From positions 1-53,546 of IMG/VR virus record IMGVR_UViG_3300032164_000019: 53,546 nt of DNA; one strand, written 5' to 3'. The position numbers were made by a program, and so were the translations under genes. Of the stretch, positions 27,701-32,214 are shown piece by piece (positions within the stretch are counted from its first letter, which is position 1; each line of letters opens with the position of its first letter). Under the pieces are notes generated by a model. The model did no database searches and had not been told where the DNA came from. It saw only the letters and a program-made list of their open reading frames with translations. This DNA is from a virus (Duplodnaviria > Caudoviricetes).

Positions 27701-27828
27701 TTGTGGTGCAAACTAGCCAACAAAACACTAGTGTACAAAATAATACTATGATTACTCCGGCTAATCCTAGAGGAACCGAATCAACTCATGAGCAAATTAT
27801 GCGTAAGGCCTTCGGCGGTGGTTTTTAA
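24724..27828 (+). CDS. gp29-like tape-measure/hub protein with VgrG3-like muramidase domain
   Basis: Follows gp26-gp51; K/E/P low-complexity N-half, a hydrophobic segment, and SE..G...SYGAYQF...F..AW..LA...F..AQ motif. Confidence 0.65.
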   Translation: MKFTKYGPNGEILEKGPDGRYLPSTPKPPTKPEEKMSLEDQMLAMSYTPTPTGSDGRPTKEGIIAHAKKVDDLQRRIVERDKISAAEKKAAEKKAEIDKARVKSELPKPAEPLKPSVVKPAESVKEKTDSFAAKLKKEGKERTERIKADFSEKKGEGLFSLSRLDFVPKKDKEPKAAPKSEEPEAAPKSEEPKVAPKPEEPKAAPKPEKPKKTPKPKEPKEAPKRVKKVKEPISEPAIIEKPKKTRKPKEPKLAGFDAKSSIGNDPIPETKEAPKEEKAAKENIANRIFGRLKSKAKGFFEGGKKVVENTEESPELQDTQTDVPKPDLDVEKQPLGMFGQTTIYHANKPEEEEPPKKKRRKKKGEVDEEPTVKSQSTDPKSGWDSEENTSIFGGSSKRFYRKVKLSRKEKKDINSGTNEIEDSGKTSKSDPAPKSLAGILNKHTKLLTVIAAGVKKMSGIKSKDIDYEGKLTDKLKGKTERVVGEKRKKDKNGIFDDDFLKKLTSNNPFVNLPIEMAKWGLSFISSLGAMMALKLTAFAVALAAAYDLYKGFKEGYDDIDTQKQTLNPSFDTETQKTMGGFVGMAKTTGRWLDKVNDKIFGKKRQGELTFEDIGASSSTNVLNRFGEAMHDVANNPIVPMVENNPENQAIIKAISEQQKLARETGIPTKPEDVIKPPTPPPSNEAIRYQRQEALEKWKKIRQPIIAPIPPSDSKTTSNVEREKGQRGDPVGKDLLTMARISETGPKTGSAADIKAYGKNNKDGEGYSYGAYQFHSLYGLKEFLPFLKQKYPKFAKILYDAGGIPAAQKNSPKFVAAWEALANNKEFHKAQDEGILELYGKPVFSLVKSQTGLDFSKKSLKIQSGIASMAINKGNQGAANIIKSTFSGANQQVVDSMSDKELANRIASSRALDLEGSKNRGDQGLWNRIENEKISMGGDPGQRIFKNDEGITVPSPKPTVELAKIESPQTGKQLYTASVNVEEQRNAPQPQQPVVVQTSQQNTSVQNNTMITPANPRGTESTHEQIMRKAFGGGF
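25240..25347 (+). repeat. four 27-bp tandem repeats (EPKAAPK(S/P)E)
   Basis: GAACCTAAAGCGGCTCCGAAATCCGAA-like units. Confidence 0.85.
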
Positions 27829-28479
27829 GCTTTAGCCAAATTCTCGAAATAAGATAGATCATCACCTTCCCCTGTAGCCCAAGGTAGTTCATCACTATCC
27901 TTTTCAGACTCAGGTTCTGACTCTTTTTCTAATTTCTTTGGGGCCTTAACTTTTTTCGGCTTAGATTCAGCCACTTCCAATTCATCTTCAACAGTTTCAC
28001 TCTTAGCAGAACCATTAACATTACCAACAACCTTTAAGAATCTGGCCTTTAATTCATCATAAGTCTTAAAGTTCTTTTCATCGGTGAACTCACTTAAAGG
28101 ATATTCTTTCTCCCAAATCTTTTTGATTTCCGCATCCTTACCTTCACACAAAGCGGAAGGATTATCAAACATAGATTTATCATAATTGACATATCCTAAT
28201 ACTTTACCAGCACGAAGCTTAAAGTTTGCGCCATCCCAGAAAGAGAATGGATTAATAGGTTGATCTGTACTATCTTCAGCAGGATTCAAAAGATCATTAA
28301 TCTTCTCAAAGATTTTTTGTCCAAACTTAAATAGAAAAACTTTACCATTATTTGCAGGTTCTTTAGGATCACTAACTACCAAAATATTACTAACATAGAT
28401 GAGTTTTCTTTTACGGCCTCTAACAATATCTTGGTTTGCTTTTACTTCAGTATTCCAAAGAACTGTATTTGCTTCACAA
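27825..28479 (-). CDS. ssDNA-binding protein gp32, exon 2
   Basis: Open frame from (T)TGT GAA: CEANTVLW...RKRKLIYVSNILVVSDP...GKVFLFKFG.KIF, GANFKL, NYDKS, acidic tail. Confidence 0.93.
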
Positions 28480-28555
28480 CTCTTATGTTGCGGTTAAATC
28501 GTTTCCATTTAACCTCTTATATTTTCATATAAGGACAGACTATATCACCACCCCT

Positions 28556-29536
28556 TTAAAGGGTGCTCTGCATTTCGAGAGTACTACTCTCTACTGGTAT
28601 ACCCATAGTCGTTGAACCTTCTCCATAGTTTTTAACTTTAGGAGCTTGGCTGCTGATTATCCAATTTAAAGACTTTTTAAACCTTTCAAGTTCTTCCTTT
28701 CGAAACTTAACACCTTGTTTTGTTTTTCTGATTCTATTAAAAACAGCAAATAAAAATATATATCCTTCTTTTTCTACTGCCATCTTTTTCTCAATACAGT
28801 TTTGATAATGTTTTTCCAAAGTATATTGGCTTTTTACTTCAATAATCAAATGTAAATGAGGCAAATAAATATCAGGATAATAAGTAGAATTACCGTAAAT
28901 AAAACTAGGAACATTAGAAATCCCAACTTTAATATCATTGTTATTAAAGTTGAAATCGTTAATAAGAATATCCAATACAAACCATTCATATCCTTGTACC
29001 TTTATTTCTTTTCCAAAGAAATTATATGATTTATACCAACTACTTTTTTCCTTAGTTTTCATAATCTTTTCCGAAATCGCTTTTCTTTCAAATTCATCCT
29101 TTTTTGACCATTGTAATTTGGTTTTTTCCGAATGAAAATTATTCCCATAACGATTAAGTATTGTTTTTTCTCTTTTTTCTAATAAAGAGACCCAATAAGT
29201 TTGTGTTTTTTGGTTTAAGGTTTTTCGTATGTTTAATTTAAAAGATTCTAATTTTTGAGGATCATTAACAAATCTATCCCTAACAGATTTTCTATGTTCT
29301 TCCGATTTACAAGCATGAATATCCGAACAATACTTTCCATATCCATCAGAAATACCTTTGAAAGAAACAACTTTATTACATCCATCAAAACGGCAAACAT
29401 CCTCATTTTCTTCTTTTAAGAACATATCATAATATTCTTTTGATTTTATACCCAATTTTCTCAACCTATTACACAAACCCCTTAACGTAGTAAATTCACT
29501 ATTATCAACAAGGCATTTAAATATTTTGTTATCCAT
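28556..29536 (-). CDS. intron-encoded PD-(D/E)XK-type putative homing endonuclease
   Basis: Cys-rich N-terminus; VQGYE...YYPDIYL...IIEVKS core; C-terminal residues are read through the intron core. Confidence 0.8.
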   Translation of the reverse strand: MDNKIFKCLVDNSEFTTLRGLCNRLRKLGIKSKEYYDMFLKEENEDVCRFDGCNKVVSFKGISDGYGKYCSDIHACKSEEHRKSVRDRFVNDPQKLESFKLNIRKTLNQKTQTYWVSLLEKREKTILNRYGNNFHSEKTKLQWSKKDEFERKAISEKIMKTKEKSSWYKSYNFFGKEIKVQGYEWFVLDILINDFNFNNNDIKVGISNVPSFIYGNSTYYPDIYLPHLHLIIEVKSQYTLEKHYQNCIEKKMAVEKEGYIFLFAVFNRIRKTKQGVKFRKEELERFKKSLNWIISSQAPKVKNYGEGSTTMGIPVESSTLEMQSTL

Positions 29537-29541
29537 AAAAC

Positions 29542-29549
29542 TATTTATA
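29542..29549 (-). promoter_or_regulatory. late promoter TATAAATA inside the intron
   Basis: 5 nt upstream of endonuclease ATG 29536. Confidence 0.75.
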
Positions 29550-29665
29550 CCAATACATTTCAGGTTAACTCTATATTATGACTTGTGTGGTGCCTTAACT
29601 TAAGGACTTTCCAGCAATTAACAGAGTTTTCATTAAAAATTACTTTTTAATGCCGCTATTAGCTA

Positions 29666-29943
29666 ACGGGGCAAGCTCTACCGCTGAGAGAAGTTAAACA
29701 ATTCTCAAATAACCATCCAGCGGTACCTTTAAATTGGTGTGTGAAATAACGAATAAATGGAAAATCTTCTCCTTCAGGAGCCATTAAAAAACGAATAACG
29801 GCACTACCATTATCGGCTTTATCTCGTTTTAGGGACCAGAAACGGTCATCAGCGAAGTTTGCTTTGGAATTTAAGCCCTCAATACGTTCTTGGAGCTTTT
29901 TACGGACATCATCTTTATTTTTCTTTAATTGTGCGAAATCCAT
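29666..29943 (-). CDS. ssDNA-binding protein gp32, exon 1
   Basis: DDRFW...DKADNGSAVIRFL, H.FKG..GW.FENC.TS...CP; 278+655 nt joins to a 310-aa protein. Confidence 0.93.
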
Positions 29944-30996: not shown

Positions 30997-31158
30997 TTAT
31001 CCTAATAAATTACAACATTCTTCACAATAATATCCCCATTTTCCATCGGGATAAATTTCTTTCAATTTATCATCGATATTGAAATCGTAACCCTCTTTAA
31101 CTGCACGTATAAATCCGCATCTATCACAATAATCATGTCCATCACATAGAGTCCACAT
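30997..31158 (-). CDS. 53-aa putative zinc-binding protein
   Basis: MWTLCDGHDYCDRCG...YYCEECCNLLG*, two CxxC pairs. Confidence 0.5.
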   Translation of the reverse strand: MWTLCDGHDYCDRCGFIRAVKEGYDFNIDDKLKEIYPDGKWGYYCEECCNLLG

Positions 31159-31214
31159 TATATGTACATCGCCTTATTAATTCCTCTGAGATTAAGAAAA
31201 GAATCCATAATATT

Positions 31215-31387
31215 AAATGCTGGGATTTGATTAGAAGGTTCCCAGCCGACCTCCCTCATTTAGGCGCTTGCGGCCATAACAAGTGGCTTAGTATTAATAG
31301 CCTTTATTGTTTACGTTTTTCTCGTGGACGTCCCACTAGTCAGTCTTTCTCCGCCCCATTCGATCTTGTCGAATGCCTTACGCCCCC
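31215..31387 (-). ncRNA. ssrA: two-piece tmRNA, coding piece
   Basis: Starts GGGGGCG-UAAGGCAUUCGAC; resume context AAUAAAG|GCU; tag AINTKPLVMAASA* at 31301-31260; 3' hairpin GCUGGGA/UCCCAGC. The 3' end is approximate. Confidence 0.88.
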
Positions 31388-31552
31388 ACCAGGGCCCTCA
31401 ATTATTTTATGTATTAAAAGAAGCTGGCATTACTCTCAAGATAGTTGAAATGGCTGGTAATTAACCGGTATAACCTCCATTCAACATTCCACTCTCTTAG
31501 CCACTCGCTCTAAGAACATGAAAAGACTAGTACAATTCCTAATTGAGGACCC
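31388..31552 (-). other. 165-nt intervening sequence of the permuted tmRNA precursor
   Basis: Ends pair: (ACCA)GGGUCCUCAAUUA with UAAUUGAGGGCCC(UGGU). Confidence 0.8.
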
Positions 31553-31634
31553 TGGTGGAAGCGGCGGGATTCGAACCCGCGTCCAAAATCGCTTCAAACT
31601 TCGATTCAGAGTTAAACATCACTCAACGACTAAC
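31553..31634 (-). ncRNA. ssrA: two-piece tmRNA, acceptor piece
   Basis: GAC-GCGGG-UUCGAAU-CCCGC-CGCUUCC-A-CCA; pairs with GGGGGCG to give G3.U70; 5' end inferred from the promoter. Confidence 0.88.
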
Positions 31635-31640
31635 AATACT

Positions 31641-31669
31641 ATTATATATCATTCCAAACTATTTGTCAA
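31641..31669 (-). promoter_or_regulatory. sigma70 promoter for tmRNA
   Basis: TTGACA-17 nt-TATAAT with TG at the extended -10 position. Confidence 0.85.
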
Positions 31670-31869
31670 GTACTATTTTTATTAGATTTCCAACTTATAA
31701 CTTCATCCGAATATAAAGCATATTCTAATAAATGTTGTTCTTCCGGTTCATCCGGATCACAATATGATTGGCACATGCAACAATATAAATCTCCATTACG
31801 GACTTTATGTAGACACTCATTCTTACATTTGGTGCATCTATATTTAGGGGGAATAGTTGTTCTTAACAT
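31666..31869 (-). CDS. small zinc-ribbon hypothetical protein
   Basis: CTKC...CCMC motifs, 67 aa. Confidence 0.55.
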   Translation of the reverse strand: MLRTTIPPKYRCTKCKNECLHKVRNGDLYCCMCQSYCDPDEPEEQHLLEYALYSDEVISWKSNKNST

Positions 31870-31981
31870 ATTCTTCGATTTTTCCTATTATTAAATGTTT
31901 TGGACAACAATATTTCCGTTTTTAAGTTTATATGCGGAAGGTAATCCACAGCACGTTAGACTTTGAACTACCTTCCAAATG

Positions 31982-32054
31982 TCGGGGTAGCAGGTCACGA
32001 TCCTGCGGCCTCCTGATCCCAAATCAGGCGCTCTTCCAACTGAGCTACACCCCG
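31982..32054 (-). tRNA. tRNA-Pro(UGG), CCA not encoded
   Basis: CGGGGUG/UACCCCG acceptor; CCUGA-UU UGG GA-UCAGG; T-arm GCAGG-AUCGUGA-CCUGC. Confidence 0.9.
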
Positions 32055-32081: not shown

Positions 32082-32110
32082 ATTATAGCATAAACCTATT
32101 TAGTTGTCAA
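32082..32110 (-). promoter_or_regulatory. sigma70 promoter upstream of tRNA-Pro
   Basis: TTGACA-17 nt-TATAAT with TG at the extended -10 position. Confidence 0.8.
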
Positions 32111-32139: not shown

Positions 32140-32214
32140 TGGTGGACCGACGGAGATTTAAACTCCGATTTTCCGGGTGCAAGCCGGTGTTCCTATCAGT
32201 TAGAAGATCAGCCC
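32140..32214 (-). tRNA. tRNA-Ala(UGC), CCA encoded
   Basis: GGGCUGA/UCGGUCC acceptor with G3.U70; CCGG-CU UGC AC-CCGG; T-arm CGGAG-UUUAAAU-CUCCG; ACCA end. Confidence 0.85.

Follow-up and report, generated by a model that had tools for sequence, protein, structure and literature searches.

The window analysed here, a 53.5-kb virus record from IMG/VR with an estimated completeness of 31% and a G+C content of approximately 34%, carries a permuted tmRNA gene that was called by ARAGORN on the minus strand at 31169-31645. In this call the 3' tRNA domain precedes the 5' tRNA domain, and the tag frame occupies positions 345-386 of the gene. The general permuted-tmRNA model of Rfam (RF04321) matches 31260-31623 across model positions 1-213. 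Its score of 57.6 bits lies above the cut-off of 47 and is low compared with the 90-145 bits reached by other phage genes. The segment 31388-31552 is the intervening sequence (IVS, or spacer) of this phage-encoded, circularly permuted gene. An earlier sequence-only reading had marked a structured insert here, and the borders it gave are exactly those of the minus-strand spacer according to ARAGORN and RF04321. The features of the locus and its surroundings are collected in Table 1.

The 7-bp acceptor stem (GGGGGCG/CGCUUCC) includes the G3.U70 pair of alanine identity together with G4.U69, and the ACCA end is encoded. The T-loop, UUCGAAU, is canonical and not of the alpha type. The alpha, beta and cyanobacterial subtype models (RF01849, RF01850 and RF01851) gave no match in the window at the gathering score; weak subtype similarity is still possible, since the E-value Rfam scan suppressed lower-scoring members of the clan. 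The tag AINTKPLVMAASA is atypical, and ARAGORN prints 'Tag not identified' for it, while nearly all tags of the other permuted genes among the matches listed start with AND, ANN or ANE and end in xAA (LAA, VAA, MAA). From a by-eye reading, the region that follows the tag frame appears pseudoknot-like. Just upstream of the gene, all 12 hexamer positions of a sigma-70-type promoter agree with the consensus, and on the strength of that agreement the element is a putative promoter, with transcription probably starting near 31634.

Table 1. Features of the permuted tmRNA gene and its neighbourhood (window positions; ranges for individual RNA strands run in the direction of the RNA).
Feature	Position	Strand	Basis
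tmRNA gene, permuted	31169-31645	minus	ARAGORN
Putative sigma-70-type promoter TTGACA-17-TATAAT, just upstream of tmRNA	31641..31669	minus	12/12 hexamer matches
Acceptor piece: P2 strands, T-arm, acceptor 3' strand, ACCA	31553..31623	minus	RF04321 alignment, ARAGORN 3' tRNA domain, sequence
T-arm GCGGG-UUCGAAU-CCCGC	31580-31564	minus	sequence
Acceptor 3' strand CGCUUCC	31563-31557	minus	sequence
ACCA	31556-31553	minus	sequence
IVS, 165 nt, predicted to be absent from mature tmRNA	31388..31552	minus	between ARAGORN 3' and 5' tRNA domains; Rfam insert in acceptor-strand loop
Closing helix, 5' strand: ACCA + GGGUCCUCAAUUA	31540..31556	minus	sequence, folding
Spacer interior, 135 nt, holding both hairpins of the sequence-only reading	31405..31539	minus	
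Closing helix, 3' strand: UAAUUGAGGGCCC + UGGU, ending at U(-1) directly before G1	31388..31404	minus	sequence, folding
Coding piece: acceptor 5' strand, tag frame, putative pseudoknot-like region, 3' tail	31169..31387	minus	ARAGORN, Rfam
Acceptor 5' strand GGGGGCG (G1 = 31387; G3.U70 pairs with U31559)	31387-31381	minus	sequence
Tag reading frame AINTKPLVMAASA, stop UAA	31301-31260	minus	ARAGORN
ORF with weak gp32 N-terminal match	29659-29943	minus	21.6 bits, under cut-off
ORF, DUF7487 protein	28556-29536	minus	72.6 bits
Group I intron	28516-28749	minus	Rfam, 55.3 bits
ORF matching C-terminal part of gp32	27825-28382	minus	89.3 bits
tRNA-Pro	31981-32054	minus	ARAGORN/Rfam
Second tRNA, adjoining tRNA-Pro	32143-32214	minus	Rfam, 43.4 bits; no ARAGORN call

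T4-type baseplate, tail and replication genes were identified on the window through PHROGs. For the gp6-like baseplate protein, the closest isolates are OM43 phage Melnitz and the pelagimyophages Mosig and HTVC008M, at approximately 40% amino-acid identity. The T4-type gene set and this level of gp6-like identity place the record in a distant lineage of aquatic T4-like myophages. The DNA runs that contain the tmRNA locus are labelled as sediment metagenomes; an RNA run containing it was looked for, and none was listed. On the minus strand at 27825-29943, the gene for the ssDNA-binding protein gp32 seems interrupted, with the DUF7487 ORF and the group I intron lying between its two partial matches. 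Closer to the tmRNA gene, perfect TTGACA-17-TATAAT promoter sequences were observed at 32082-32110 before tRNA-Pro and at 31641-31669 before the tmRNA gene, both on the minus strand, and each of these two small RNA genes seems to have an early-type promoter of its own. Small cysteine-rich ORFs with CxxC pairs lie on both sides of the tmRNA gene on the same strand (30997-31158, 53 aa, and 31666-31869, 67 aa); no Pfam match was obtained for either.

The two ends of the spacer form a long helix that continues the acceptor stem. ACCAGGGUCCUCAAUUA (31556-31540) pairs with UAAUUGAGGGCCCUGGU (31404-31388) at 17 of 17 positions with one G.U pair (U31549.G31395), and the helix consists of 13 pairs within the IVS and four pairs with the ACCA tail, with U31388 at position -1. 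It stands flush with the 7-bp acceptor stem, which yields 24 uninterrupted base pairs. Pair probabilities in the closing helix range from 0.95 to 1.0, and the stem alone reaches -41.6 kcal/mol. When the IVS was shuffled 200,000 times, helices in the same register grew to 12 pairs at most and never to 13. The closing helix is real and far beyond chance, and the 17-bp extension of the acceptor stem burying the CCA, as proposed in the sequence-only reading, was recovered. The folding of the whole IVS gave z = -2.25, a value that is due to the closing helix. The base at -2 is a G (UGGU before G1), which leaves C74 paired and the CCA wholly buried. Substrates of RNase III are uninterrupted duplexes of about 20 bp or more, and the 24-bp duplex, with the acceptor stem included, has that length.

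For the 135-nt interior (31539-31405), the folding energy is -24.8 kcal/mol, compared with an average of -27.3 over its shuffles (z = +0.67), and 143 of the 200 shuffled sequences are as stable or more so. Two hairpins had been named within it. The first, UCUUAG (31515-31510) with CUAAGA (31500-31495), is present in the sequence, and MFE folds give a similar, slightly different hairpin; the second, GUUGAAUGG (31485-31477) with CCAUUUCAAC (31453-31444) and one bulged U, appears in the MFE folds as named. Both can thus be found as described, but they are at chance level, since the interior folds no better than shuffles, and that part of the earlier description is left without statistical support.

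The interior was also searched for contents of its own. Its longest ORF has 14 aa, and a 38-aa frame starting with TTG (31481-31597) was dismissed as a gene because it passes through the acceptor piece. An Rfam scan to E 10 returned no credible family, the sole match being a meaningless one to a miRNA model (22 bits, where the cut-off is 230); with this result and no tRNA call from ARAGORN, a ribozyme, a riboswitch, a tRNA-like element or another known RNA was rejected. An internal promoter candidate, ATGCCA-18-AATAAT (31430-31401, 9/12 matches), was set aside, with eight sites of equal quality found and 7.2 expected in shuffles. A repeat element was likewise rejected, as the 13-mer of the closing helix occurs at the two helix strands and nowhere else in the window. 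Comparisons of the interior by blastn and nhmmer yielded no similar sequence, either in the remainder of the window or in 4.5 Mb of retrieved loci. Judged by its letters, the interior is best read as lineage-specific filler, perhaps the remnant of a former cargo, with no detectable function of its own, although a missing signal does not amount to a missing function.

Close relatives of the locus were sought in several collections. A blastn search of 31100-31700 against isolate phages gave no match. In IMG/VR, the pattern GGGTTCGAATCCCGCCNNTTCCACCA retrieved five loci, of which L004 alone is kin: a 9.7-kb contig, 100% identical over 531 nt, and the sole relative found. The pattern GGGGNNNTAAGGCATTCGAC also led to L004 only in IMG/VR, and in metagenome contigs it retrieved 35 loci with no permuted and four standard tmRNAs. 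Among 80 loci with a gp59-like neighbour, L007 is the identical contig, and the other 79, at no more than 40% identity, have no tmRNA. Contigs from four DNA runs showed no natural variants of the spacer; they supplied identical low-depth fragments that leave most of the spacer uncovered, together with unrelated T-arm matches.

To place the spacer among others, permuted tmRNA genes were gathered in five ways, and spacer borders were taken from the ARAGORN domain coordinates. Acceptor strand, ACCA, spacer and acceptor strand were folded with the acceptor stem forced (constrained MFE), and a closing helix was counted when its strands lay no more than 4 nt from the acceptor stem. The helix counts depend on the constrained MFE and on the ARAGORN borders, a few of which are visibly wrong (e.g. 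L650), and the survey samples are the matches listed, not random draws.

A length-biased IMG/VR scan, taken together with Melnitz, Mosig, HTVC008M and a cyanophage-like record, provided at least 50 distinct genes, and among the matches listed, 44 of the 46 genes whose IVS measures 44 nt or more have the helix. A scan for spacers of 150-180 nt ending in UGAU returned at least 119 loci, among them 11 real genes (150-177 nt), all 11 with the helix. Two further viral samples were length-blind. The search with alpha-type T-loops on viral contigs gave at least 118 loci and 76 permuted calls, corresponding to 67 distinct genes; among the matches listed, their spacers measure 7-210 nt (median 56), and 44/67 have the helix. 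With canonical T-loops, at least 115 new loci gave 57 permuted and 28 standard calls; the 56 distinct permuted genes have spacers of 4-211 nt (median 77.5) and show the helix in 41 cases, again among the matches listed. When these two length-blind sets were pooled, the closing helix was present in 85 of 123 distinct genes among the matches listed, with a median of 13 bp over the 76 helices that have no more than six unpaired bases. The pooled spacers range from 4 to 211 nt, reaching at least 100 nt in 23/123 and at least 165 nt in 4/123 of the listed genes.

In alphaproteobacterial genomes, at least 120 loci were retrieved; 97 of the calls were permuted, and they correspond to 95 distinct genes. 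Among the matches listed, the IVS is 5-139 nt long with a median of 28, a length of 100 nt or more is reached in one gene of 95, and roughly half of the genes, counted from the list, form a helix of eight or more pairs. The SAR11 spacers among these matches are 7-12 nt long and have no closing helix. The contrast with short bacterial spacers that the sequence-only reading had drawn is a fair one. A two-piece tmRNA can be made without the helix, since among the matches listed it is lacking in 38 of the 123 viral genes and in roughly half of the alpha-type genes from bacteria. The closing helix is common and conserved in the spacers of phage permuted tmRNAs and not special to this phage. Taken as a helix built from about 10-13 bases at either end of the spacer, standing flush with ACCA and having U at -1, it is present in this window in that form. 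The sequence-only reading had singled out a long, structured, CCA-pairing spacer as something special, a view that the 85/123 helices and the 23/123 spacers of at least 100 nt among the listed viral genes do not bear out.

The strands of the helix were also compared across phages. The set consisted of 77 distinct helices from the two length-blind viral samples, with spacers of at least 40 nt, and 17 positions were scored from A73. With its own partner strand, a gene pairs on average at 13.25 of the 17 positions; this average falls to 9.72 when the partner strand is taken from other genes and to 5.75-8.65 when the register is shifted by 1-3 (77 helices among the matches listed). At positions 4-14, between 68 and 96% of the same listed helices are paired, and each position shows three to six pair types. 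An earlier, mixed gene set showed the same trend. These figures overstate the number of independent events, because the sequences share ancestry, which the own-versus-cross test ignores. Such covariation of the two strands is the pattern expected from selection on RNA pairing. The sequence-only reading had named covariation across related phages as a check on the pairing, and by the own-versus-cross test it is found for the closing helix in other phages among the matches listed.

Two bases next to G1 vary little. Among the viral matches listed, U(-1) is nearly fixed and pairs with A73, and A(-2) is nearly fixed and forms a mismatch opposite C74; in 69 of the 77 distinct helices among the matches listed, A(-2) faces C74 and the helix is interrupted exactly there. 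The four bases before G1 are UGAU in 66/123 and UGGU in 2/123 of the listed viral genes. Bacterial RNase P prefers U(-1), and the conserved U(-1) fits this preference. The RNA of bacterial RNase P contacts the RCCA end, which the conserved unpaired C74 would suit. All four Rfam models (RF04321, RF01849, RF01850 and RF01851) draw the spacer as an unpaired loop.

What is unusual in the present gene is that the C74·A mismatch is absent and the CCA is fully buried in a perfect duplex. Pairing is uninterrupted from A73 in two of the 77 comparison helices among the matches listed (L594 and L620, both UGGU, with 13 and 15 pairs), and none of the 77 is paired at 17/17 positions, as this window is. Because C74 faces A(-2) in 69/77 and the helix is uninterrupted in 2/77, the fully paired form is a rare, derived state. 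The length of 165 nt lies at approximately the top 3% of the length-blind samples among the matches listed. The second unusual property is a long spacer without an ORF (longest 14 aa), whereas an ORF of 36 aa or longer is present in 12 of the 17 listed viral spacers that measure 130 nt or more. Many long phage spacers (L096, L108, L098, L125, L270, L306, L703, L714 and others) carry AGGAG...ATG right after the CCA, with ORFs of 36-74 aa. In such ORF-bearing spacers, the Shine-Dalgarno-like bases fall within the closing helix.

Taken as a whole, the locus is best explained as a phage permuted-tmRNA spacer in which the closing helix would serve as a folding clamp and a cutting stalk and the interior as filler, a reading to which we assign a probability of roughly 0.65. 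It starts from the identity of the gene, the helix with its conservation and covariation in other phages, and an interior free of signals; from these we infer the processing steps and the enzymes. The whole gene would be transcribed as a single precursor from its own early-type promoter. During folding of this precursor, the closing helix would stack on the acceptor stem and keep both halves of the tRNA-like domain in register, and it would then provide the stalk where the spacer is cut away. A first cut could be made by a double-strand-specific endonuclease or by a nearby single-strand endonuclease, after which RNase P would act at G1 and the 3' end would be trimmed back to the CCA, and the two tmRNA pieces would remain joined through base pairing. 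In most phages, acceptor stem and helix together give approximately 21 pairs with one mismatch, while here they form 24 perfect pairs. As a C-G pair replaces the usual C74.A mismatch, the entire ACCA lies inside the perfect 24-bp duplex; with no free CCA, the need for an RNase III-like first cut within the duplex is more probable here than in most relatives.

Precedents for such a stalk exist in ribosomal RNA. In the IVSs of fragmented 23S rRNA and in rRNA processing stalks, an end-to-end duplex is cut by RNase III, and the functional RNA is left in base-paired pieces. The spacer described here resembles them in the long duplex built from both ends of the removed segment, which spans about two helical turns and fits an RNase III substrate. 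Unlike the rRNA stalks, no action of RNase III on a permuted pre-tmRNA was found documented in the literature searched. A stronger proposal is tentative and on balance unlikely: the locked CCA and RNase P site would permit maturation only after a double-strand-specific cut, by host RNase III or a phage enzyme, gating tmRNA activity and releasing a hairpin-capped RNA of approximately 140 nt, and the covarying helix with its U(-1) and A(-2) would constitute a processing signal of two-piece tmRNAs in phages that has gone undescribed and that none of the four Rfam models contains.

Other explanations give the pairing or the spacer a different role; two of them, control of maturation timing and a released small RNA, had been suggested in the sequence-only reading alongside RNase III-type cleavage. 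The ACCA:UGGU pairing might be a timing device that hides the CCA and the RNase P site, so that maturation or charging is delayed until a particular nuclease or helicase becomes available. The rarity and derived state of the fully paired form among the matches listed would suit such a device, as would the contact between bacterial RNase P RNA and the RCCA end; however, a single A-to-G change suffices to create the pairing, which makes neutral drift possible, and two other phages, L620 and L594, combine UGGU with spacers of ordinary length (79 and 110 nt, respectively). We regard a timing role as unlikely. Similarly improbable is that the spacer is itself a cargo, namely a stable small RNA of approximately 135-165 nt that processing releases and that has its own function during infection. 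Other phage spacers do carry cargo, as the ORFs in the listed spacers of at least 130 nt illustrate, and a tRNA-Ala gene and a repeat element have been reported inside spacers, as mentioned in the parts of the tmRNA database paper that were available (PMC11915505). The 13-bp terminal stem would, moreover, shield an excised RNA from exonucleases. Against this stand an interior that folds no better than shuffles and has no Rfam or tRNA match, and the failure to find anything similar in either the remaining window or the related loci, which total 4.5 Mb.

Far less probable still is a role of the inverted repeat in the DNA itself, marking the ends of a small mobile insertion or serving as a recombination site, with no selection for an RNA helix; this is the weakest of the three rivals. 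A 13-bp imperfect inverted repeat around 139 bp would have the right shape, and phage spacers behave as exchangeable slots of variable content. Yet the repeat has no direct-repeat target duplication, its pairing continues into the functional ACCA, and the 13-mer is found nowhere else in the window. Above all, the strands covary across phages while their sequence changes, as selection on RNA pairing produces.

The reading as a processing stalk can be set against what has been published. The processing of permuted pre-tmRNA is described as 'probably RNase P and tRNase Z' in the accessible part of PMC3985003. No paper on the spacer helix or on RNase III for permuted tmRNA was found in the literature searched, which comprised sources accessible in part; Keiler 2000, Gaudin 2002, Sharkady and Williams 2004 and Mao 2009 lay outside this search and may describe the helix. 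The tmRNA database paper (Nawrocki, Petrov and Williams 2025, PMC11915505) defines the IVS and is also the source for the spacers with a tRNA-Ala gene or a repeat element inside; the closing helix is not mentioned in the sections of that paper available to us. As in the bacterial permuted genes covered by RF04321, RF01849, RF01850 and RF01851, the present gene has an acceptor piece, an IVS and a coding piece with the same tRNA-like domain, and its spacer would be removed at maturation, as in those genes according to the same partial source (PMC11915505). It differs in its 165 nt from the short bacterial alpha-type spacers, with their median of 28 nt among the matches listed. The more general point, which may be useful, is that phage genes share a covarying closing helix with nearly fixed U(-1) and A(-2) that the Rfam models leave unpaired. 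For the question of how such a precursor is divided into its two pieces, the fully paired variant found here would be a natural substrate to examine.

Two-piece tmRNAs of phages are already on record, with Melnitz and 53 two-piece genes among isolate phages, according to the portion consulted of Buchholz et al. 2022 (PMC9004378), and the spacer studied here is a further instance, towards the upper limit of the length range and empty of cargo. Like Melnitz, Mosig and HTVC008M, as far as they are described in that portion (PMC9004378), the present record belongs to a T4-like aquatic myophage with a complete permuted tmRNA behind an early promoter. Their spacers also close with a helix starting right after the CCA, of which no mention was found for their ssrA genes in the same portion of PMC9004378, and the Melnitz spacer is likewise long, at 142 nt. 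The three tmRNAs differ from this one in being alpha-type, with matches to RF01849 and the T-loops GGCAGUA, UGCAACU and UGCAAUA, whereas the present gene has UUCGAAU and matches no subtype model at the gathering score. Its odd tag also sets it apart from all three. Finally, a glutamine riboswitch follows the gene in Melnitz and is absent here; in the Melnitz ssrA locus (L090), this riboswitch lies at 1886-1934, downstream of the coding piece and outside the 142-nt spacer.
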